Shown one piece after another: positions 1,671 to 46,940 of a DNA stretch of 46,940 bases. The first letter of the stretch is position 1; every line of letters starts with the position of its first letter. The position numbers were made by a program, and so were the translations under genes. The notes beneath the pieces are model-generated. The model was not told the origin of the DNA and did no database searches. It saw only the letters and a list, made by a program, of their open reading frames with translations. This stretch comes from a virus. The DNA lies in the IMG/VR virus record IMGVR_UViG_3300025117_001212. One strand, given 5' to 3'.

Positions 1671-3557
1671 ATGGCAAGTAGTAGACGATTACCATTAGCA
1701 TATAACGAAAGCACTTATGATAGTGCTGGTGGTAAAGACTATTCTGTACTATCGGTATGGGAGGGTGCTACTGATATCGATTTAGTTACCGCTGAAGCAG
1801 GTGAAATTTTAAATTGCTATGCGGGGGCACATGATGATTATGTCACTATCGATGGAGCCACTGTTAGTTCTTCATATTTTCGTGTTATTAGACCGGCAAG
1901 CGGAGAAGGTCATGTCGGTATTCCAAAATATGATGGGTCTGTAGTTGCCTTTGTATCTTCAGCCAGCACTGCACAATTATTTTATCTTGGCGAAAATTAT
2001 ATTGGTATTTATGATTTATGTTTGCAATTCAATAGAAGTTACGCTGGAACTACACGACATGTATATGCTCCCGCAGCAGGGGCATATTCGAAAACTGTTG
2101 GAGATCTAATATCAGGAGCTTCTAATGCTGATGCATCTGGGGTTTTGGTTGGTATTGATTTGCGAGGGGCTTATTGTGTTATTGCAAATAGTCTTGTTGC
2201 TAGAGTAAGTGGCGGAACCAGTATTACTTTATTCAGTTTAGCAAAAAATACAGGTGTTATTTATAATTGTACAGGTGTACAACCATCAAGTGCTGGATGG
2301 GGCATATATGCTTCTGAAGCTGGTACATTAGCTAAAAACTGTATCATAGTCAATGCTGCAATTCATGCTAATGTTACGCAAACTACATGTTTAACTAGTA
2401 ATCCCACCTATGTAGATTCCGATAATGATGATTTTCATTTATCATCGGAAGATACTATAGCAAAAGATCAAGGAACAGATTTAAGTGGAGATGGGGCTTT
2501 TGCTTTTGATGATGATATTGATGGTGAAACACGTAGTGGTACTTGGGATATAGGATTTGATGAATATATTGAACCTAGTTCTAGTTCTTCTAGTGAATCA
2601 AGTTCATCACAATCTAGTAGCTCTAGCTCTCAGTCTTCTAGTTCTTCAATTTCAAGTAGTAGTAGTTCTATAAGTTCTAGTGAATCTAGTAGTTCTAGTG
2701 AATCTAGTAGTAGTAAATCAAGTTCAAGTATTTCTTCTAGTAGTTCATTAGCTTCTTATATTGAAATTGAAGATATAGGAATTCAATCTTCTAGTTCAAG
2801 TATATCAAGTTCTAGTTCCCAATCAAGCTCTATATCTTCAAGTAGTTCTATTTCAAGTTCTTCTCAATCTAGTAGTTCTAGAAGTAGTTCTTCATCATCT
2901 CAAGAATCTAGTTCATCTAGTGAAAGTTCCTCTAGTTCAACTTCTAGTTCTTCCCAATCAAGTTCTTCACAATCTAGTAGTTCTAGTTCACAATCTTCTA
3001 GCTCCCAATCATCATCATCAACTTCAAGTAGTTCTAGTTCTACTTCTAGTTCTTCACAATCATCTTCTTCTACTTCTAGTAGTTCAAGCTCTAGTAGTTC
3101 ACAATCTAGTTCTTCGCAATCTTCTGAATCAAGTAGTTCACAATCATCATCTTCGCAACAATCTAGTTCATCTGCTTCATCAAGCTCTGAAGCGATGGAT
3201 ATGGATAGATATCCATCAACACCAATTCCTGTAGCCACATGGGAAGAAAGTTATGAATTTAAAACAAATATTCTTGAAGCTGTGAATGGTTCAGAACAGA
3301 GAGATAAAAAATGGAGTAATCCTAGAAGAAGATTTAAATTAAGATATCTGTATGAAGATGTTACTGACGGGTTGTGGTGGTTTGCTATTGGGCATAATGG
3401 TATTGCAGATAGTTTTATATTTGACCCACATGATTTTTTACCTACGCTATATGAATCAGAAGAAATCACAATGAGATTTGCTTCAGATGAAATAGGAAGA
3501 AGCATAGTTATAGATGGGATATATAACTTAGACATAGAATTGGTAGAGGTGAAGTAA
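1671..3557 (+). CDS. Tail protein: beta-helix-like N-domain, poly-Ser linker, DUF2460/distal-tail-like C-domain
   Basis: DDFHLSSED...WDIGFDEY motif, a ~200 aa Ser-rich tract, then FKTNILEAVNGSEQR..W..PRRRFKLRY typical of distal-tail-like domains. Confidence 0.65.
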   Translation: MASSRRLPLAYNESTYDSAGGKDYSVLSVWEGATDIDLVTAEAGEILNCYAGAHDDYVTIDGATVSSSYFRVIRPASGEGHVGIPKYDGSVVAFVSSASTAQLFYLGENYIGIYDLCLQFNRSYAGTTRHVYAPAAGAYSKTVGDLISGASNADASGVLVGIDLRGAYCVIANSLVARVSGGTSITLFSLAKNTGVIYNCTGVQPSSAGWGIYASEAGTLAKNCIIVNAAIHANVTQTTCLTSNPTYVDSDNDDFHLSSEDTIAKDQGTDLSGDGAFAFDDDIDGETRSGTWDIGFDEYIEPSSSSSSESSSSQSSSSSSQSSSSSISSSSSSISSSESSSSSESSSSKSSSSISSSSSLASYIEIEDIGIQSSSSSISSSSSQSSSISSSSSISSSSQSSSSRSSSSSSQESSSSSESSSSSTSSSSQSSSSQSSSSSSQSSSSQSSSSTSSSSSSTSSSSQSSSSTSSSSSSSSSQSSSSQSSESSSSQSSSSQQSSSSASSSSEAMDMDRYPSTPIPVATWEESYEFKTNILEAVNGSEQRDKKWSNPRRRFKLRYLYEDVTDGLWWFAIGHNGIADSFIFDPHDFLPTLYESEEITMRFASDEIGRSIVIDGIYNLDIELVEVK

Positions 3558-5733: not shown

Positions 5734-7152
5734 ATGGCATCGAACGAATATCAGATTTCAGCCGGCCTAGTCCCGATTGACAACTCCACGGGGGCGACCA
5801 GTAACGCCTATTACATTGCGGCGGGGCTGGTGCCGGGGGATACGGAGGCGGGCGGGGAATCAAGTAGTTCTAGTGAATCTAGTTTATCCGAATCTAGCTC
5901 GTCTAGTACATCTAGTTCTTCTCAATCTAGTAGTTCTAGTAGCTCACAATCTAGTTCTTCTAGTGAATCTAGTAGTAGTAAGTCAAGTTCTTCTCAATCT
6001 AGTAGCTCTAGTGAATCTAGTTCATCACAATCATCTAGTTCATCTAGTGAAAGTAGTAGTTCACAATCATCTAGTTCTAGTGAAAGTAGTAGTTCACAAT
6101 CATCTAGTTCTAGTGAGAGTAGTTCATCACAATCTAGTTCATCTAGTGAGAGTAGTAGTTCACAATCATCTAGTTCTAGTGAAAGTAGTAGTTCACAATC
6201 ATCTAGTTCTAGTGAGAGTAGTTCATCACAATCTAGTTCATCTAGTGAGAGTAGTTCATCACAATCTAGTTCTTCTAGTGAGTCTAGTTCATCTAGTGAA
6301 TCTAGTAGTAGTGAGTCAAGTTCATCTAGTGAATCTAGTAGTAGTGAGTCAAGTTCATCTAGTGAATCTAGTAGTAGTGAGTCAAGTTCATCTAGTGAAT
6401 CTAGTTCATCACAATCTAGTTCTTCTAGTGAGAGTAGTTTATTACATCTCAGTTCGTCTTCATCAAGTGAATCGTTAAGCTCTTCAAGCAAATCAAGCAG
6501 TTCTAGTACGTCAAGTTCATCACAGTCTAGTAGTTCTAGTGAAAGTAGTAGTTCTAGTAAATCTAGTTCTTCGCAATCAAGTAGTTCTTCTACTTCTAGT
6601 TCATCACAATCATCTAGTTCTAGTGAATCTAGTTCTTCACAATCGAGTTCATCTAGTGAATCTAGTTCATCACAATCAAGTTCTAGTACTTCTAGTTCAT
6701 CACAATCTAGTTCTTCTAGCGAATCGAGTAGCTCACAATCGAGTAGCAGTTCGATTTCTAGTAGTTCACAATCATCTAGTTCTAGTGAATCAAGTTCATC
6801 ACAATCTAGTTCTTCTAGCGAATCGAGTTCTTCACAATCATCTAGTTCTAGTGAAAGTAGTAGTTCACAATCATCTAGTTCTAGTGAAAGTAGTTCATCT
6901 AGCACTTCAAGTTCTTCACAATCAAGTAGTTCAAGCGAATCATTTCATCCACTATCAAGTTCAAGTAGTTCTCAATCAAGTTCTTCTATCCAAAGTAGCT
7001 CTTCACAGTCAAGCAGTTCTACAGTTTTTACAGATCTATCAGATCCATCTATTGTTTTCAAAGTTGATAAATTAATAACAAATTTCAAAGTTGATAAATT
7101 AATAACAAATTTCAAAGTTGATAAATTAATAACAAACTTTAAAGTTTCTTAA
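5734..7152 (+). CDS. Poly-serine protein (~390 aa Ser-rich tract) with a C-terminal 9-aa repeat
   Basis: SSSES/SSSQS repeats with mixed TCN/AGY codons; ends in (FKVDKLITN)x3. Confidence 0.7.
   Translation: MASNEYQISAGLVPIDNSTGATSNAYYIAAGLVPGDTEAGGESSSSSESSLSESSSSSTSSSSQSSSSSSSQSSSSSESSSSKSSSSQSSSSSESSSSQSSSSSSESSSSQSSSSSESSSSQSSSSSESSSSQSSSSSESSSSQSSSSSESSSSQSSSSSESSSSQSSSSSESSSSQSSSSSESSSSSESSSSESSSSSESSSSESSSSSESSSSESSSSSESSSSQSSSSSESSLLHLSSSSSSESLSSSSKSSSSSTSSSSQSSSSSESSSSSKSSSSQSSSSSTSSSSQSSSSSESSSSQSSSSSESSSSQSSSSTSSSSQSSSSSESSSSQSSSSSISSSSQSSSSSESSSSQSSSSSESSSSQSSSSSESSSSQSSSSSESSSSSTSSSSQSSSSSESFHPLSSSSSSQSSSSIQSSSSQSSSSTVFTDLSDPSIVFKVDKLITNFKVDKLITNFKVDKLITNFKVS
7057..7146 (+). repeat. 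27-nt tandem repeat, three copies plus a partial copy
   Basis: ttcaaagttgataaattaataacaaat units at 7057, 7084, 7111. Confidence 0.9.
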
Positions 7153-14089: not shown

Positions 14090-14959
14090 ATGATAGAATT
14101 TAATAAAATAGTTATTAAAGAATTATTTAGTAATATTTTCGAACATGGGGCATGGACTATTTTTGTTGATGAAAAATATAAAACATGTGACGATGGCGAG
14201 TCCATTCTTGTGAATAATAAAATTTCACTATGTACAACTGTTATGAACCGAAGTGATGATTTAATTAGGTCATTGCCACAAAACATAGAGGATAATAAGG
14301 ATTATCCTAACCTAGAGTTTTTGATATTAGATTATAATAGCTCTAGTAATGAATTAATTAAGCTAATTAATTTTTTATCACAACCATTATATTTAGAATT
14401 AATAAACGAAGGTAGATTAATATTTTATAGGACTGAAGAACCTAGTCATTATAGTATGTCTCATTCGCGGAATATTGCTTTTAAGCAGGCCAAGGGTGAT
14501 ATCGTAGTGAATGTAGATGCTGATAACTTAACTAATAAAGGATTTGCGTCAAAAATAAATCAATTGGCAAATGCTAAACCAGAAATGGCCATTTTTGCAA
14601 AAGGTAAAAGAATGTTAAGAGGCAGACTTGGATTCTATAAAAAAGAATTTATAGAATTACTTGGGGGGTACAACGAAGACTTCATTGGTTATGGTGTAGA
14701 TGATAGAGATATCATGTGCAGAGCTTTTGGGTTAGGATTTACAGCCATGTGTTTTGGAGGTAAATATTTTGGAATAGTAGAGCAAATAATTAAAGAAAAT
14801 AAGACTATAAATATGATTAATCAAAATTGGAAGTATACAGAAAAATTGAACAAAATTATTTCATTTTTTAATTTAGCTTATGGTCTTTATAAAGCTAACA
14901 TAAATAGAAAATGGGGAGTTGTTAATGATCTTAAATCATTTTGGGAATTGGAATTATAA
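14090..14959 (+). CDS. GT2/GT7-like glycosyltransferase whose 3' third is a recoded allele associated with the TnpB cassette
   Basis: ISLCTTVMNR, SRNIAF, VNVDADN, GGYNEDFIGYGVDDRD. Confidence 0.85.
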   Translation: MIEFNKIVIKELFSNIFEHGAWTIFVDEKYKTCDDGESILVNNKISLCTTVMNRSDDLIRSLPQNIEDNKDYPNLEFLILDYNSSSNELIKLINFLSQPLYLELINEGRLIFYRTEEPSHYSMSHSRNIAFKQAKGDIVVNVDADNLTNKGFASKINQLANAKPEMAIFAKGKRMLRGRLGFYKKEFIELLGGYNEDFIGYGVDDRDIMCRAFGLGFTAMCFGGKYFGIVEQIIKENKTINMINQNWKYTEKLNKIISFFNLAYGLYKANINRKWGVVNDLKSFWELEL

Positions 14960-16243
14960 TGTTTTTTAAATCTATAACATATAGAATCTATCCTACTAAA
15001 TCTCAAGAACAGATGTTTAATCAATTCTGTGGTAATAATAGATTTGTTTGGAATCACTTCTTGATGAGAAATATTAAACATCATTTTGTTAGTGGTAAGT
15101 TTATCTTTGGATATGATATGTGTAAGGAGTTAACTAAATTAAAAGAAGAATATGAATGGTTAAAATTATCACCAGCACAATCGCTCCAACAGCAATGTTT
15201 GAATCTTGATAAAGCTATCAAGAATTGTTATAAATCTGAATTTGGATTTCCTAAGTTTAAAAAGAAAGGTAAATCTAAAGAAAGTTTTAAAATAGTTCAA
15301 AGATTTTGGTTTTCTAAATCAAGAAAATCCATAAGAATACCTAAAATTGGATTCATTAGAATTAAGCCTAAAATCAATATTAATTTAAAAGATATCAAGA
15401 ATGTAACCATCAAAAAGATCAATAATCATTGGTATCTTTCTATATGTCATCAATTCAATATCTTTAGAACCCCAATGACTGGGAAAAGAGTTGGATTAGA
15501 TTTAGGAACTGTTAGGTTAGCAACTCTCAGTAATGGTAAAGTGATTGATAAGTTTGAAGACAAAGAATTAGTAAAAAAATTTAAATCAACTCAAAGAAAA
15601 CTAGAAAGGAGAACTAGAAGAAATCGTAAGTATAGAATGAAAAAAATTCAATCTATTAGTCGTGCAAAAACCAAGCAATCACTATCTAGATTGAATAAGA
15701 AACTTAGAGACAAGAGAAAAGATTACTTAGATAAAGTTTCTAAGAAGTTAGTGAAACGATATGACGTGATCTGTATTGAAGACTTGAAAATATCCAATAT
15801 GACTAGACAAGTAAGAGAAAATGAAGATGGATCTCCAAGAAAAAGTGTTAGTGCCAAATCAGGATTGAATAGAGAAATACTCAATCAATCTTGGGGTCAA
15901 CTGATAAACATGTTAGATTATAAATCTAAGTGGTTCAATAAGAGTATGATTAAAGTAGATCCCCATCACACATCACAAAGATGTAGTGAATGTGGATTCA
16001 CTCACAAGAGAAATAGGAGATCACAATCAGAATTTAAGTGCTTAAAGTGTGGTTATGAGCTAAATGCAGATCACAATGCTGCAAAGAATATCAAAAGATT
16101 AGGTATTAGGCAATGGAAAAAAGGCAGCGTAGAATTAAAAAGGTTTGGACGTAACCATGTGGAGGACTCACAGAGTCTAATGAAGCTAGAAAGTTCTATC
16201 TTAGATGGTAGATGCCTTAGAAGTAATTCTAAGGAAACGTCAT
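14693..16243 (+). mobile_element. TnpB cassette 1 (recoded gene end, tnpB, omega-RNA); no tnpA
   Basis: Bounded by a diverged duplication of the glycosyltransferase 3' end starting at 14693 and at 16244. Confidence 0.7.
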
Positions 16244-16251
16244 GGAGCTGA
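14959..16251 (+). CDS. tnpB: TnpB RNA-guided endonuclease (IS200/IS605 family), copy 1
   Basis: YRIYPT N-terminus, GLDLG, IEDL, CSECG..CLKCG zinc finger, NADHNAA; ATG overlaps the upstream TAA; ORF reads through the omega-RNA. Confidence 0.95.
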   Translation: MFFKSITYRIYPTKSQEQMFNQFCGNNRFVWNHFLMRNIKHHFVSGKFIFGYDMCKELTKLKEEYEWLKLSPAQSLQQQCLNLDKAIKNCYKSEFGFPKFKKKGKSKESFKIVQRFWFSKSRKSIRIPKIGFIRIKPKININLKDIKNVTIKKINNHWYLSICHQFNIFRTPMTGKRVGLDLGTVRLATLSNGKVIDKFEDKELVKKFKSTQRKLERRTRRNRKYRMKKIQSISRAKTKQSLSRLNKKLRDKRKDYLDKVSKKLVKRYDVICIEDLKISNMTRQVRENEDGSPRKSVSAKSGLNREILNQSWGQLINMLDYKSKWFNKSMIKVDPHHTSQRCSECGFTHKRNRRSQSEFKCLKCGYELNADHNAAKNIKRLGIRQWKKGSVELKRFGRNHVEDSQSLMKLESSILDGRCLRSNSKETSWS

Positions 16252-16263
16252 TGATAGAGACAT
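16120..16263 (+). ncRNA. TnpB omega-RNA (scaffold to 16243, guide about 16244-16263)
   Basis: ~105 nt block conserved in all three copies, ending GAAACGTCAT, with several hairpins; conservation stops abruptly after it; 5' end approximate. Confidence 0.8.
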
Positions 16264-16501
16264 TCTTAATAGGGCATTTGGACTTGGATTTACGGCTATG
16301 TGTTTTGGTAAGAAATACATAAATGTGGTTACTGAAAAACAAAGTAAAACTATAAATATGATAAACAAGAATTGGCGTTATACTGAAAAATTGAATAAAG
16401 TCATTTCTTTCTTTAATCTTTTGTATGGAATCTATAGAGCTAATGAAAATAGAGAATGGGGAGAGGCACCCCTTATATCATTCAAGGATGTTTCTGTATG
16501 A
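16205..16501 (+). pseudogene. Displaced original 3' end of the glycosyltransferase, still an open frame from an ATG inside the omega-RNA
   Basis: GADDRDILNRAFGLGFTAMCFG... aligns with the last ~88 aa of 14090..14959; its TGA overlaps the next ATG. Confidence 0.8.
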
Positions 16502-17549: not shown

Positions 17550-18659
17550 GTGATGATAAGCACCATAACTTTACTTGAAAATCAAGAGATCTGGTTGAAT
17601 GAATATGCTGAATCAGATCCTGTACAATTGTCATATTTCGCCCCTGGTGGGAATATGGCATTGGATGTAGTTATTACAGGAATTGGTCATATTAAGATTG
17701 ATAGATATATTGCTGATTCTTCTGATGGTACATTTTTCACTGATTCTTCATGGGGAGTAGTTACTGCGTCTCAGTCAGCAGGACATAAAAGGCATACTGT
17801 AGCGATTGATCCTGTTAGTGAATTTATTAAATTCAGATTTACTGAAATAAGTGGGGTTCTTTCTAGTTCTAGTTCGCAATCAAGCAGTTCACAATCAAGC
17901 AGTTCTTCAGCTAGTAGTGAATCTAGTTCTAGTAGTTCTTCACAATCTAGCAGTTCTTCTGTTAGCAGTGGTTCTAGTGCTAGTAGTTCTAGTGAATCTA
18001 GCAGTTCTTCAGCTAGTAGTGGTTCAAGTGCTAGTAGTTCTTCTACTTCTAGCTCTTCTAGTAGTGAATCTAGCTCTAGTTCTCAAGAGAGTTCAAGTTC
18101 TAGCACTTCTAGTTCTTCTAGCAGTGAATCTAGTTCCAGTTCCTCGCAATCTAGTAGTTCTCAAGAATCTAGTAGTTCTAGTGAATCTAGCAGTTCTGAA
18201 GCTTATTTTAAATCTAGTAGTTCTAGTTCTTCAACTTCATCCTTGAGCTCTTCACATTCTAGTGAATCTAGTTCAAGTAGCTCTACATCATCGATATCAA
18301 GTTCTAGTGAATCGTTATCTAGTGAAAGCAGTTCTTCAAGTTCGACGTCAAGCAGCTCTAGCTCTGAAGAATCAAGCTCTAGTTCACAATCGTCTAGTTC
18401 CGAGGAATCAAGCTCTAGTTCCAGTCAATCTAGTTCAAGCAGTTCTGGATCTAGTTGGTCATCTAGTTCTGAATCTTCTAGCTCTAGTGCTTCTAGTGAA
18501 TCTAGTTCAAGCATTTCTAGTTCTAGTACATCTAGTTCTTCGAGTTCCCAGTCGAGTGAGTCTAGTACTTCTTCTAGTTCTCAATCTTCAAGTTCCTCAA
18601 CCAGTAGCGAAGCACCTTCTGCGGTAAGTGTTACTGCGAAGTTGATTATCATGGGGTAG
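17550..18659 (+). CDS. Poly-serine virion-like protein
   Basis: GGAGG RBS; ~250 aa Ser tract inserted before the last beta-strand-like segment (AVSVTAKLIIMG). Confidence 0.7.
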   Translation: MMISTITLLENQEIWLNEYAESDPVQLSYFAPGGNMALDVVITGIGHIKIDRYIADSSDGTFFTDSSWGVVTASQSAGHKRHTVAIDPVSEFIKFRFTEISGVLSSSSSQSSSSQSSSSSASSESSSSSSSQSSSSSVSSGSSASSSSESSSSSASSGSSASSSSTSSSSSSESSSSSQESSSSSTSSSSSSESSSSSSQSSSSQESSSSSESSSSEAYFKSSSSSSSTSSLSSSHSSESSSSSSTSSISSSSESLSSESSSSSSTSSSSSSEESSSSSQSSSSEESSSSSSQSSSSSSGSSWSSSSESSSSSASSESSSSISSSSTSSSSSSQSSESSTSSSSQSSSSSTSSEAPSAVSVTAKLIIMG

Positions 18660-26919: not shown

Positions 26920-26989
26920 TGCCGGAGGCGGGATTCGAACCAGCGACCTCCTCTCGAGCGGTGCTCCTGCCAGACTGAGCTACTCCGGC
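26920..26989 (-). tRNA. tRNA-like RNA with a truncated anticodon arm (no assignable anticodon)
   Basis: GCCGGAG/CTCCGGC acceptor stem, TAGCTCAG.CTGGCAGGAGC D-arm, GGTTCGAATCC T-loop; only 12 nt where 17 are expected. Confidence 0.7.
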
Positions 26990-29308: not shown

Positions 29309-30112
29309 TTAAATGTTAATGGATTTTCTAAATGGATTATCTGTAGCCCAATCTTTATTCAATCTTTCAACAAACATCTTATATAGAACTTCAAAATTTA
29401 TGTCAAGGTTCGCCTCCTTTCTATAGTCATTCACTAGCTGATTTGTAACTTCAACTAGAGATTCTATATTAGAAAATTGAGTCACAATAATATTGTAGGC
29501 AGTGTCTATTATCTGACCAAACTGTGTGTTTCCAAGTTTTACTTCTGTTAATGCGTAAATCAATATTTCAAACTTGTCAACACCAGAAACAAGTAATCCT
29601 TCTTCACTGCCATCTTTTGAAGACTTCCATAGATTTATATAGTATTGCTTGATATTCTCTGGAAGCCCTTCAAACACTTCTTGCTCTACGCATTTAATAG
29701 CAATTGTTTTGAATAATGCTGATACCTGATCAGATCCATGTTTAACTGGAAACAAAATGTCGCCAGTTACACTTTCTTCTATATCATGGATAAGGGCTCT
29801 TTTAATAACTTCTGATGTATCATATCTTTTTAATTTACTATTTTCAAGATCAGCAAACAACATTGCATAGAGGGCAGTATAGAATGAATGTTCAGAAACT
29901 GGATATTTTCCAATATGCGGAGTATTTGAACATCTGTCTATGCTGCATAATCTGCGTGCCCTGAACACAAAATCTGATATATGACGTTTCTCTAATTCTT
30001 TGGAGTTAGAGCATCTACCATTTAAGGTAGAACTTTCTAGTTTCAACGGACTCAATGAGTCCTCCACATGGTTGCGCCCCAACCTTTTTTCACCTAAGCT
30101 GCTTTTTTCCAT
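29309..30112 (-). CDS. HD-domain 5'-deoxynucleotidase (YfbR-like) with a 44-aa N-terminal extension encoded by TnpB omega-RNA
   Basis: VSEHSF, ALIHDIEESVTGDI, DKFE; the first 44 codons are the omega-RNA scaffold. Confidence 0.85.
   Translation of the reverse strand: MEKSSLGEKRLGRNHVEDSLSPLKLESSTLNGRCSNSKELEKRHISDFVFRARRLCSIDRCSNTPHIGKYPVSEHSFYTALYAMLFADLENSKLKRYDTSEVIKRALIHDIEESVTGDILFPVKHGSDQVSALFKTIAIKCVEQEVFEGLPENIKQYYINLWKSSKDGSEEGLLVSGVDKFEILIYALTEVKLGNTQFGQIIDTAYNIIVTQFSNIESLVEVTNQLVNDYRKEANLDINFEVLYKMFVERLNKDWATDNPFRKSINI
29961..30110 (-). ncRNA. TnpB omega-RNA copy 2 (scaffold ends 29981; guide about 29980-29961)
   Basis: Same conserved block ending GAAACGTCAT. Confidence 0.8.
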
Positions 30113-31269
30113 TATCTGATTCCCTTCTTTTTGATATTTATAGCAGCATTATGATCTGCATTTAATTCATATCCACACTTCAAACATCTGAACTCACTTT
30201 GAGATCTCCTATTTCTCTTATGAATGAAACCGCATTTACTACATTTCCTAGAAGTATTCTCAGGATTTACCCTAATCACCTTTTTGTTAAACCAAGAACT
30301 CTTATACTCTAATATTGAAATCAGTTGTCCCCAAGACTGATTCAGTATTTCCCTATTGAGCCCTGATTTAGCACTGACACCACTTCTATGAGATCCATCA
30401 TCAGTTTTATTTACTTGTCTAGTCATATTCTTGATCTTTAAGTCTTCAATGTAGATCATATCATACTTCTTTACTAACTTCTTAGAAACTTTATCTAAGT
30501 AATCTTTTCTCTTGTCTCTAAGTTTCTTATTCAATCTAGATAGTGATTGCTTGGTTTTTGCACGACTAATAGATTGAATCTTTTTCATTTTATGTTTTTT
30601 ATTTTTTCTAGTCCTCCTTTCTAGTTTTCTCTGTGTTGATTTAATCTTTTTCAGTAACTCTTCATCTTCAAATTTATCAATCACTTTTCCATTAGAAAGA
30701 GTTGCTAATCTTACTGTTCCTAAATCTAACCCGACTTTTCTACCTGACATTGGAGTTCTAAATATACTGAATTGATGACAGATATAAAGACACCAATTGT
30801 TCCCTTGCTTTTTAATGGTTACATTTTTAATATCTTTAAGATTAATATTAATTCTAGGTTTGATTCTAATAAATCCAATTTTAGGAATCTTAATTGATTT
30901 TTTAGATTTAGATATTTTAATGTTTTGATTAACCCTAAAACTTTCTTTAGATTTTCTTTTCTTTTTAAACTTAGGAAATCCAAATTCTGATTTGAAGCAA
31001 TTTTTTAGTGCTTTATCTAGATCTAAGCATTGTTGTTGAAGTGGTTGGCTAGGAGATAGTTTTAGCCATTCATATCCTTTATACTGTTTTAATCTAGTTA
31101 ACTCTTTACACATATCATACCCAAACAGGAACTTACCACTAACAAAATGATGTTTAATGTTTCTCATTAAGAAGTGATTCCATGTAAATCTATTATTACC
31201 ACAAAACTGATTAAACATCTGTTCTTGCGATTTAGTAGGATAGATTTTATATGTAAAAGATTTTATCAT
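30112..31269 (-). CDS. tnpB: TnpB RNA-guided endonuclease, copy 2
   Basis: GLDLG, IEDL, zinc finger, NADHNAA; close paralogue of copy 1. Confidence 0.95.
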   Translation of the reverse strand: MIKSFTYKIYPTKSQEQMFNQFCGNNRFTWNHFLMRNIKHHFVSGKFLFGYDMCKELTRLKQYKGYEWLKLSPSQPLQQQCLDLDKALKNCFKSEFGFPKFKKKRKSKESFRVNQNIKISKSKKSIKIPKIGFIRIKPRININLKDIKNVTIKKQGNNWCLYICHQFSIFRTPMSGRKVGLDLGTVRLATLSNGKVIDKFEDEELLKKIKSTQRKLERRTRKNKKHKMKKIQSISRAKTKQSLSRLNKKLRDKRKDYLDKVSKKLVKKYDMIYIEDLKIKNMTRQVNKTDDGSHRSGVSAKSGLNREILNQSWGQLISILEYKSSWFNKKVIRVNPENTSRKCSKCGFIHKRNRRSQSEFRCLKCGYELNADHNAAINIKKKGIR

Positions 31270-43539: not shown

Positions 43540-44061
43540 TTATACCCCATATATTTCGTTACGCTTCCAAGGTGCTAGACAATATCGCTCTAACTTTTGT
43601 AAATCAAATAATTTCCCAGGGCATGATTTCTTTGCAAATGCTCTATGCCCTTGTATTCCATTTATTACTGATATTCCAAATGTTGATACTAATGTTATTA
43701 TAAGTTTCACTAGTTTATCAATCATTTCCATAGGTGGTTCTATTTCATCATAATTCCCCACACAACATACTCCAATGCTATTACTATTCTGGCCTTTCGT
43801 GTGAGCTCCTGGAATATTCCAAGATCTACCAACTAAAGTCTCATATTCATTATTTATTCTTTCAATTCCGAAATTATATCCTATGTCTATCCAAGGTTCT
43901 TCTACGGATTTACCATCATATATTAATTTTTCTGATTCTTCTTTTGTTATTATATTTCCATTATACCTCCATGAAGTATGATATCTCCGAATGGCTTGCC
44001 AATCAACAACAGCACCATCTTTGGTTAGAGAATGATGTATAATAATATTTTTATATTCCAA
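43540..44061 (-). CDS. N-acetylmuramoyl-L-alanine amidase (endolysin-like, Amidase_2)
   Basis: IIIHHS, DIGYNF, GAHTKGQNSNSIGVC..GNY, GHR..KSCPG. Confidence 0.9.
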   Translation of the reverse strand: MEYKNIIIHHSLTKDGAVVDWQAIRRYHTSWRYNGNIITKEESEKLIYDGKSVEEPWIDIGYNFGIERINNEYETLVGRSWNIPGAHTKGQNSNSIGVCCVGNYDEIEPPMEMIDKLVKLIITLVSTFGISVINGIQGHRAFAKKSCPGKLFDLQKLERYCLAPWKRNEIYGV

Positions 44062-44076
44062 GACACTCCTCCCTAA

Positions 44077-45249
44077 TTAAATAAAAATTAATCTTCTTGG
44101 CCTCCAAATTAATTTAGATTTAGAATATGATATCGGGAAATTGCTATCAATGTTTGTACGTATAGTAATTCCTAATACTTTTAAGCTCCTAATAGATCCT
44201 ACTATATTCCCTAGTTTATAATGTTTTGCTTTTATAATATCCCAATGTCTAAATCCATTTCTTTCAATACAAGTTTTAGTTGGATTATTTTCCCATACCT
44301 TGGTTCTTTTGGGAATTATCAAATATTCCTTACATTTAAACTTAAAAGACTTAATCATAGCTGAGGCATCATTTGCATGAGATTTTTTTAATCCAAGTTC
44401 TATTCTTTTATTTTTAGTCATCCAACCAAAACAAATTCTCACTTTTTTAAATCTTTCTTTCAATGCATTAAATAAAAACCATTTTCCTTGTTGAACATGT
44501 GCTGGATATCTGAATTGTTTAACACTTTTATTAAATAGCCATTTACCATTATGTAATGAATTATGACAATTCTTGCACAAAGTCAATCCGTTCTTAACTA
44601 TGTTAGTTCCACCATTTGATCTAGGAATTATATGATGGGCATTTAAATTTTCTTTACTTTTACAATGTTGACAAATATATTTATCTCTCCATAGAACCTT
44701 TTGTCTCCAATTTTCACCTTCATATCTAGATTGTTGATATTCTTTCCCAACCAATTTATATCCAGCACTCATTGATGAAATATCAAATTGTCCTTGTTCG
44801 ACAACACATTTAGTGATATTTAATCTTTTCATCATAAAATCAATCACTCTAAGAATTGATTCTTTCTTTTGTCTTATAGAAGGAGGAATCCAACCTTTTT
44901 CTCTTTTTCTATTCAAAAACCTACATTGTCTATATCTTAAATTACGATTTCTTCTATTTCTACGATACATCATTCTTTGCAACATTTTTCTATGTACATC
45001 TTGCCTTAATTTAATAGTTCCACAAAATACAACATTTTTCTTGTGACCTATTGATATCCCTACTTCTTTAGCTCCATCATCAATTCCGATTTTAAATTTG
45101 CCTACAGGATTATTAATCACTTTCTTCAATTGAATCGTAAACGGAATCACTGAATATACAAATGCTTTCTTTTTCTTCAAAAGAAGTCTTGCCCTTGCTT
45201 CAGTGGTAGGAAGCAATGGCTTAAATTCTCTATCTATGACAAAGACCAT
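44077..45249 (-). CDS. iscB: IscB RNA-guided endonuclease
   Basis: PLLP (PLMP) N-terminus, GIDDG RuvC-I, RRNRR bridge helix, VEQG, HNH (HHIIPRSNGG..N..CKNCH), KSHANDA. Confidence 0.95.
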   Translation of the reverse strand: MVFVIDREFKPLLPTTEARARLLLKKKKAFVYSVIPFTIQLKKVINNPVGKFKIGIDDGAKEVGISIGHKKNVVFCGTIKLRQDVHRKMLQRMMYRRNRRNRNLRYRQCRFLNRKREKGWIPPSIRQKKESILRVIDFMMKRLNITKCVVEQGQFDISSMSAGYKLVGKEYQQSRYEGENWRQKVLWRDKYICQHCKSKENLNAHHIIPRSNGGTNIVKNGLTLCKNCHNSLHNGKWLFNKSVKQFRYPAHVQQGKWFLFNALKERFKKVRICFGWMTKNKRIELGLKKSHANDASAMIKSFKFKCKEYLIIPKRTKVWENNPTKTCIERNGFRHWDIIKAKHYKLGNIVGSIRSLKVLGITIRTNIDSNFPISYSKSKLIWRPRRLIFI

Positions 45250-45505
45250 TTAAGGTATCTCCTCTCGGGTTACGGTATCCTCGACAAACTGCGTCTCACG
45301 TCTTAACGATAAGAACCCATGATTCCTATCCCACAGAGCTCCAAACTGGATAAATTCGGAGGTGTTTAGTGAGAACAGGTAGCTGGACAAACTCACCTGC
45401 ATACTCGGCTTAACAACCAGCTTAGTCTCGAAGTCAATCATTGTATGCTACGACTCCTTGAATGAATCTAAAAACGAATGTTGACTTGCTACTTCTAAAA
45501 ATGTG
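45250..45505 (-). ncRNA. IscB omega-RNA (guide about 45505-45486; scaffold from GTCAAC at 45485)
   Basis: GC-richer block upstream of iscB; AAGTCAACATT pairs with AATGATTGACTT, followed by AGACTAAG, as in IscB omega-RNA 5' stems. Confidence 0.7.
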
Positions 45506-46503: not shown

Positions 46504-46625
46504 CTCTTCTTTTTACTAATTTCATGACGTTTCCTCTAAGAGGCATCTACCATCTAAGGTAGAACTTTCTAGCTTCAACGGACTCTGTGAGTCCTCCACA
46601 TGGTTGCGTCCCAACCTTTTTGATT
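46504..46625 (-). ncRNA. TnpB omega-RNA copy 3 (scaffold ends 46524; guide about 46523-46504)
   Basis: Same conserved block ending GAAACGTCAT. Confidence 0.8.
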
Positions 46626-46940
46626 TCAAGCTGCTAACCTCAATCCTAATCTCTTAATATTTATAGCAGCATTGTGATCTGCATTCATTGTGAATCCACA
46701 CTTCAAACATCTAAAGTCAGATTGTGATCTCCTATTTCTCTTGTGAGTGAATCCACATTCGCTACATTCTCTTGAAGTGTTCTTAGGATTAACTTTTATC
46801 ACTTTTTTATTATACCAAAGACTCTTATATTCTAACATATTAATCAGTTGTCCCCAAGACTGATTCAGTATTTCCCTATTGAGCCCTGATTTAGCACTGA
46901 CACCACTTCTATGAGATCCATCATCAGTTTTATTTACTTG
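46626..46940 (-). CDS. tnpB: TnpB copy 3 (3' part only; truncated by the window edge)
   Basis: SGLNREILNQSWGQL, zinc finger, NADHNAA. Confidence 0.9.
   Translation of the reverse strand, partial: QVNKTDDGSHRSGVSAKSGLNREILNQSWGQLINMLEYKSLWYNKKVIKVNPKNTSRECSECGFTHKRNRRSQSDFRCLKCGFTMNADHNAAINIKRLGLRLAA

Follow-up and report, generated by a model that had tools for sequence, protein, structure and literature searches.

A GG-ended IscB/omega-RNA element at a phage cupin-amidase junction: evidence for a link to IS607

The IscB gene and its genomic context

Where does a phage gene end and the guide RNA behind it begin, when an IscB nuclease has settled between two genes and both of them appear to have survived? 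The question is raised by a 46,940-nt stretch of viral DNA (IMG/VR record IMGVR_UViG_3300025117_001212, hereafter the window), which is contained in a phage-like contig of about 140 kb and is known from groundwater and soil metagenomes. The window encodes DNA polymerase III alpha, RecA, thymidylate synthase, three TnpB proteins and one IscB. On its minus strand a cupin gene is followed by an omega-RNA, iscB and an amidase gene (Table 1). A preliminary description had placed the start of the omega-RNA scaffold inside the cupin reading frame, at 45485, with a first stem encoding the last 12 cupin codons and a guide at 45505-45486. Our preferred reading, which we consider likely, is a different one: a non-autonomous IscB/omega-RNA element spanning 45457-44068 and belonging to a GG-ended clade, likely inserted in IS607 fashion at the GG of the cupin-amidase ribosome-binding site, with a nuclease predicted to cut the empty junction.

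Table 1. Features of the cupin-amidase region (window coordinates).
Feature	Positions	Strand	Basis or remark
Phage cupin gene, 140 aa	45448..45870	-	Cupin_2 E 1.8e-5, below cut-off
Cupin end K138-E139-S140-stop	element holds final two codons and stop	-	Clade left-end boundary
Predicted guide, 20 nt of host flank, codons S132-K138 including D135/S136	45458..45477	-	From clade left end; length assumed
Element left end, GG core and AGTCG; 5' strand of first stem	45451..45457	-	Best profile score in 135 nt upstream of anchor
3' strand of first stem	45430..45436	-	T5-A pair
Alternative 5' strand (cupin codons S-Q-H), host coding sequence	45477..45487	-	Pairs with 45431-45442 in long transcripts
Omega-RNA scaffold, HEARO-like	45253..45457	-	Conserved with relatives from 45429 downstream
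iscB, 390 aa, RRXRR and HNH	44077..45249	-	Pfam RRXRR and HNH; NCBIfam NF040563
Short right end and GGGAGG, also amidase ribosome-binding site	44068..44076	-	GG core within 44073-44068
Right flank, possible displaced cupin codons to TAA 44053-44051	44051..44067	-	Overlaps amidase TTG start; register uncertain
Amidase_2 gene, intact	43540..44061	-	TTG start 6 nt past GGAGG

The IscB protein matches the NCBIfam model guided_IscB (NF040563) with 309.5 bits, above the cut-off of 175, and its nearest solved protein is HfmIscB (9k2z, E 9e-49). The residues D57, E151, H291 and D294, which we take to be those of the RuvC site, as well as H205/H206, H229 and H233, which we take to be those of the HNH site, are all present and invariant across 33 aligned rows. 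Single-protein scans of viral contigs with the window IscB and cupin gave no match, no RNA dataset was among the listed carriers of the window, and a promoter scan remained at chance level (17 vs 15.9).

Several features lie elsewhere in the window. A weak tRNA-like Rfam match (42 bits) is located at 26920-26989, in the stretch that separates the RecA gene from its upstream ORF, and three ORFs contain imperfect, mutually related repeat arrays (2580-3190, 5857-7020 and 17860-18610), possibly representing repeat-rich fibre or collagen-like proteins. The three TnpB copies (14968-16215, 30011-31263 and 46543-46940) are 78-84% identical and each ends GAAACGTCA. The TnpB element at 14941-16251 (plus strand) sits between two versions of the C-terminal part of a glycosyltransferase (14090-16462), and residues 201-276 of the upstream glycosyltransferase match 16241-16462 at 71%; it looks like this element brought a replacement gene end. 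Behind the TnpB copy at 30112-31269 an HD-domain gene follows in frame, opening exactly at the element end.

The left end of the element and the end of the cupin gene

Position 1 of the Rfam HEARO model (RF02033) aligns to 45485, with 42.5 bits (E 2.5e-6), half of the gathering score of 83 bits; the window RNA is a diverged omega-RNA. Relatives of the IscB protein (39-70% identical) were gathered from 17 viral, 8 genome, 6 pattern-matched and 80 metagenome loci, and the window RNA matches theirs from the conserved GAGACTAAG anchor onward. The first stem of these relatives opens with GGAG(C/T), not with GTCAA. The best partner of the stem base begins with GGAG in 35 of 62 distinct upstream regions; in the window it is GGAGTCG at 45457, 28 nt from the anchor, and GGAGTC (45457-45452) pairs with GACTTC (45435-45430). 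Where near-identical elements occupy different sites, their divergence starts immediately upstream of GGAG. On a 16-nt left-end profile of 49 relatives, the window being excluded, position 45457 comes out top at 2.2, which is low for the clade (only 5 of the 49 relatives score lower), whereas 45488 scores -10.6 and 45485 scores -37. Pair 5 of the first stem is C-G in 42 of the 49 relatives and T-A in six, and the window has T-A; as the relatives' left ends were chosen by pairing, there is some circularity in such counts. In MAFFT alignment the variable first hairpin came out misaligned. In a quick tree search the window IscB falls into a branch of 70 rows (SH-aLRT 100), apart from 19 other IscB-like rows, and GTCAA stems are found in 7 of the 8 rows of the nearest separate IscB branch.

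A scaffold start at 45485 is not supported by these comparisons: alignment to omega-RNA relatives puts the guide boundary at 45457. More generally, the HEARO start of Rfam would misplace guides in the GG-ended IscB clade by about 28 nt. In four relatives (L012:1199-1243, L175:530-599, L011 and L126; L and G denote our loci and genomes) the first-stem bases depart from GGAG, compensated on the 3' strand, and a host ORF crosses the altered bases for 6-11 codons; if a scaffold is adapting to host coding, these four are more promising cases of it than the window.

The stem closing at 45431-45442, as first described, is readily obtained when the naked RNA is folded, its partner being 45487-45477. 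In long transcripts this stem has a probability of 0.91-0.99 and beats the native stem by 5.6 kcal/mol in ViennaRNA folding, which includes neither pseudoknots nor protein. The native stem never exceeds a probability of 0.5 in whole-scaffold folds (0.04 with a 20-nt guide); folded alone with 20 nt of flank, the first hairpin has its native stem at 0.96, and at 60 nt of flank the rival stem wins. The flank out-pairs the native stem in 8 of 48 elements, the window included. The duplex at 45487-45477 is equalled by 872 of 20,000 synonymous recodings (p about 0.04) and by 15 of 400 flank shuffles, and flank-first-stem pairing reaches p<=0.05 in 4 of the 48 elements. On these folding models the stem is likely either a chance product or a fold that masks the guide. 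Strong pairing with the first stem is seen for the flanks of two relatives, L122 and L146 (equalled by 0 of 400 shuffles). Another IS607-like right end is often found 20-140 nt upstream of an IscB element (L001:2144-2173; L112:1561-1589; the L122 flank), and the strong L122 and L146 pairing is possibly due to this arrangement.

We consider it very unlikely that the scaffold starts at 45485-45488 and contains the last 12 cupin codons. Such a model, or a softer form in which the upper hairpin was lost, the 3' strand of the stem found a new partner in cupin codons and the guide thereby shifted about 30 nt upstream, would agree with the start of the Rfam alignment, with the folds of long transcripts and with a stem length (59 nt) typical of relatives. 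The codon of S129 forms a G-C pair in the stem, at a residue which is T in 46 of 48 homologues, and keeps a small door open for it. In contrast to these points stand the profile scores, the fact that the GTCAA start belongs to IscBs of a separate branch, and the 7 of 47 other elements in which the flank likewise beats the native stem. Furthermore, the bases following a guide at 45505-45486 are identical in occupied and empty alleles, and no GG follows; because of this identity such a guide could not drive homing here.

What, then, of the cupin tail? GTCAAC is indeed found within the cupin ORF (45485-45480), the codons after it are the final 12, S129 to S140, followed by TAG, and the resemblance of this tail to homologues, as first noticed, is borne out. 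Among the best 48 of about 150 listed cupin homologues E126 and D135 are invariant, H131 occurs in 31 and S136 in 34. With respect to the motif E-x-S-T-x-H-x-x-x-D-S-Y-R the window cupin keeps E126, H131, D135 and S136 and deviates at A128 and S129. All positions of this motif are upstream of 45457. From a left end at 45457 it follows that the conserved H-x-x-x-D-S-F-K tail is likely host flank on the guide side and not scaffold, and that the element's own contribution is likely E139, S140 and the stop instead of 12 codons, as judged from sequence comparison. The preliminary description had also stated that no displaced cupin end follows iscB; in two of three possible GG registers, however, the frame can continue behind iscB to the stop at 44053-44051, giving 143 or 144 residues depending on the register. 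Since the tails of cupin homologues vary from 4 to 73 residues past D135, homology can neither prove nor exclude this continuation.

A further possibility, which we regard as improbable though less so than a 12-codon scaffold, is a dead-end copy in the window, whose native stem would be too weak, whose cupin-derived stem would mask the guide and whose RNA would be non-functional or switched off. Its first stem-loop measures 28 nt (29-130 nt in relatives) and is the shortest first hairpin of 48, with -5.2 kcal/mol as compared to mostly -9 to -46; the whole-RNA folds disfavour the native stem, and the element's ends are eroded. Against this stand the intact iscB with all invariant catalytic residues, the conserved remainder of the scaffold and two relatives with hairpins of 29 nt. 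The short hairpin may suffice by analogy, because 42 nt of the first hairpin are dispensable in OrufIscB as described in PMC13180657. The dead-end reading is compatible with the ancestry assumed in our preferred explanation.

Right ends, empty alleles and the transposition system

Both ends of the clade's elements are defined by multi-copy and iscB-less copies in two genomes (G001 and G003), in which three types of right end, GGAGG, CCAGG and GCAGG, are followed by variable flanks. GGAG(G) itself was considered as a fixed target, and was narrowed to GG after these multi-copy right ends. Right ends could be called by motif in 45 of 71 distinct iscB 3' ends (26 uncalled), and with 11 further copies, ten of them iscB-less, these make a set of 56; all 56 finish with A-GG, by the calling rule. 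GGAGG lies at most 90 nt past iscB in 25 of 53 elements (78 of 797 control windows), and an ATG follows the right end after 3-13 nt in 43 of the 56 (273 of 1240 control AGG sites). The two ends have only GG in common. The window's right end, TTAGGGAGG at 44076-44068, stands 6 nt ahead of the amidase TTG and scores -7.9 on the family-B right-end profile. An ORF of at least 100 codons enters the left end in 11 of 31 GGAG elements with enough flank, and 10 of these 11 ORFs stop within 10 codons. The clade likely inserts at ribosome-binding sites between genes, such that both neighbouring genes survive. Gene-less copies of about 400-500 nt (L199, L202-L206 and L208, in G001 and G003), in which omega-RNA is accompanied by a GC hairpin replacing iscB, occupy housekeeping operon junctions.

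Empty alleles were found for the sites of two relatives. A related phage (L285) lacks the element of L004 and has GGGAGG between the same flanks, with a joint 1-4 nt off the clean prediction of a two-base GG core; because of this allele, the Shine-Dalgarno sequence at that site is largely the host's own. The gene-less copy L202 is located at the nuoA junction, where a gene for NADH dehydrogenase chain 3 (PF00507) ends, and replaces only the last few codons of this upstream gene; the gene after it is presumably nuoB. The best 9 of 60 relatives of the L202 site are all without the element, and their GG precedes the start codon at an identical spacing of 10 nt in seven and at 11 nt in two. GG at both termini and in the target, with no further duplication, is thus exact at the L202 site and 1-4 nt off at L004/L285. 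C does not occur at TAM base 5 in any of the 56 called right ends; L285 shows that GAGG can be host-derived and this count is therefore register-dependent, base 5 also being non-C if it is the G of GGAGG.

For the window itself, contigs of 8 of 11 runs, several possibly the window's own source, gave no cupin-amidase joint across the element, and X11, considered as an empty allele, was rejected, its low share reflecting patchy cover. An exact search of viral contigs with the predicted guide returned 0 matches, and a second target of either guide with up to 4 mismatches was not present in the window. The L015 flank met occupied copies only in viral contigs, the L023 and L195 flanks had no match in relatives of G003 and G001, and L112, considered as an empty allele of the tnpA element of L001, was ruled out on comparison.

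Which system moved the element? IS607 elements are described as having GG ends, inserting at GG without duplication and carrying helically phased end motifs (PMC6188088; PMC13565253). The left ends of the clade are periodic at 10 nt, with values of 0.51 at lag 10 in 11 elements and 0.39 in seven others (0 of 300 shuffles each); this phasing appears in both groups of relatives tested and is absent from the shortened left end of the window. A profile of 13 left ends has a single good match in 80 kb of 27 transposase loci (E 0.0016), just upstream of a full IS607 tnpA (204.6 bits) at L261, the only one of 15 IS607-type loci to match. A profile of eight right ends scores 23.0 behind a tnpA pseudogene with an in-frame stop (L001) and 20.5 behind a tnpA fragment and a TnpB-like gene (L112), compared to 26.5 and 24.9 for the IscB right ends of the same loci and a background of at most 2.1. 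Ends common to the IscB clade and IS607 tnpA/tnpB elements are hence seen in three loci, all of them loci of relatives, the window's own ends being eroded. No serine recombinase was found in the window, in five phage records (one complete) or in G001 despite its many copies, and no tnpA lies inside any element copy examined, the nuclease being IscB and not TnpB. IS607 TnpA is above cut-off in 3 of 5 bacterial genomes, G001 not among them.

The same boundaries could belong to an IS200/IS605-type element whose Y1 transposase now uses a G-rich target (read on the other strand, CCTCC, with RCTCC as the motif encoded by the element), a reading we regard as quite unlikely. The ISC elements described in PMC4810608 are all of the Y1 type, parts of the literature associate IscB with AT-rich targets and Y1/IS200-IS605 transposons, and according to the Meers 2023 preprint few positions normally distinguish TAM from TEM. 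G001 and G003 both contain Y1 genes, the L285 allele agrees with an insertion immediately ahead of a host GGAGG, and hairpins occur at some right ends (z -1.48 and -2.05 in the window, -2.99 in L015, -2.01 in L004, 0.09 in L007, none in L116). In contrast, GG is all that the right flanks of the CCAGG group have in common with those of the GCAGG group, the ends match IS607 elements in three loci and carry phased motifs, and no clade end matched 12 Y1 loci by blastn or profile.

According to the preferred IS607 reading, an ancestor would have inserted at the cupin-amidase ribosome-binding-site GG by means of a borrowed serine recombinase of the IS607 type (TnpA_S acting in trans), and the IS607 left end would have become the first hairpin of the scaffold. 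Transcripts reading through from the cupin gene would carry its last 20 or so nucleotides as the guide. The TAM would begin with GG and differ from the element's GGAG(C/T) at base 5 (likely GGAGG here), and by excluding the fifth base that the element carries, such a TAM would leave the occupied allele uncut. Cleavage of the empty allele would allow the element to be copied across by recombination, i.e. homing. The cupin would lose only a few terminal codons and gain a new stop, and the amidase would keep its Shine-Dalgarno sequence, both genes being little harmed because the insertion site is a gene junction. The window copy, which has no phased left-end motifs, is likely immobile and would persist by homing or drift.

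The idea of a gene-preserving insertion thus stands in part: the cupin is left intact and the scaffold begins in its ORF and supplies its stop, with an overlap of about two codons and the stop instead of 12 codons. Likewise, element sequence does take the place of the 3' TAM, as it does in the IscB elements treated in the Meers 2023 preprint, where the guide comes from transcription of the 5' flank. Gene preservation comes from landing at a ribosome-binding site at a gene junction, not from a scaffold that recodes a gene end.

Known systems and biological meaning

ISC elements (PMC4810608; Meers 2023; RF02033) resemble the clade in their IscB, an upstream omega-RNA, a guide in the 5' flank, a TAM in the 3' flank and the occurrence of non-autonomous and gene-less copies. 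They are described as starting with GT-CA and targeting GT|GR or ATGA (PMC4810608), whereas the clade starts with GG-AG(C/T) and targets GG in a ribosome-binding site; its separate tree branch and its IS607-matching ends also set it apart. With the IS607 family (IS607, IS1535, PMC6188088; CboIStron) it shares GG ends and target, the lack of a longer duplication, motifs phased by 10 bp in the two groups of relatives tested and, in three loci, the ends themselves, and its G-rich target recalls the AGGAG and GAGGG TAMs reported for RAGATH-18 IS607 TnpBs (PMC11061315). Unlike IS607, which encodes a serine TnpA and TnpB, the clade carries IscB, takes its guide from the left flank and makes an RNA hairpin of its left end. 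Section 9 of PMC10691335 describes IscB, unlike TnpB, as not strongly linked to transposases. Like IStrons and free-standing phage homing endonucleases (as described in PMC13565253; 10.1101/2023.11.20.567912), the clade combines a selfish nuclease with a spared host gene and predicted homing; in contrast to IStrons it does so without splicing, by its choice of site and an early stop in the left end.

No report of an IscB with IS607 ends, or of one inserting at ribosome-binding sites, was found in the literature searched. The clade may already be catalogued in the supplements of Altae-Tran 2021, which reportedly hold omega-RNA groups and TAMs.

On balance we favour, with somewhat less assurance than our reading of the window locus, the view that in this clade an IscB was re-housed in IS607 ends, its left end doubling as the first omega-RNA hairpin, and that the Shine-Dalgarno GG is recognised by the recombinase as well as by the nuclease. 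The outcome would be an RNA-guided homing endonuclease of 390 aa with a GG-starting TAM, parked at operon junctions of phages and bacteria, which would cap the upstream gene with its own stop and leave or supply the ribosome-binding site of the next. Such a clade would imply that one transposase system can be exchanged for another in the Cas9 ancestor, whose RNA is then rebuilt at its base out of the new end. It predicts a TAM starting with GG on a very small nuclease, and it would explain how elements of this kind persist in gene-dense phage operons without splicing.
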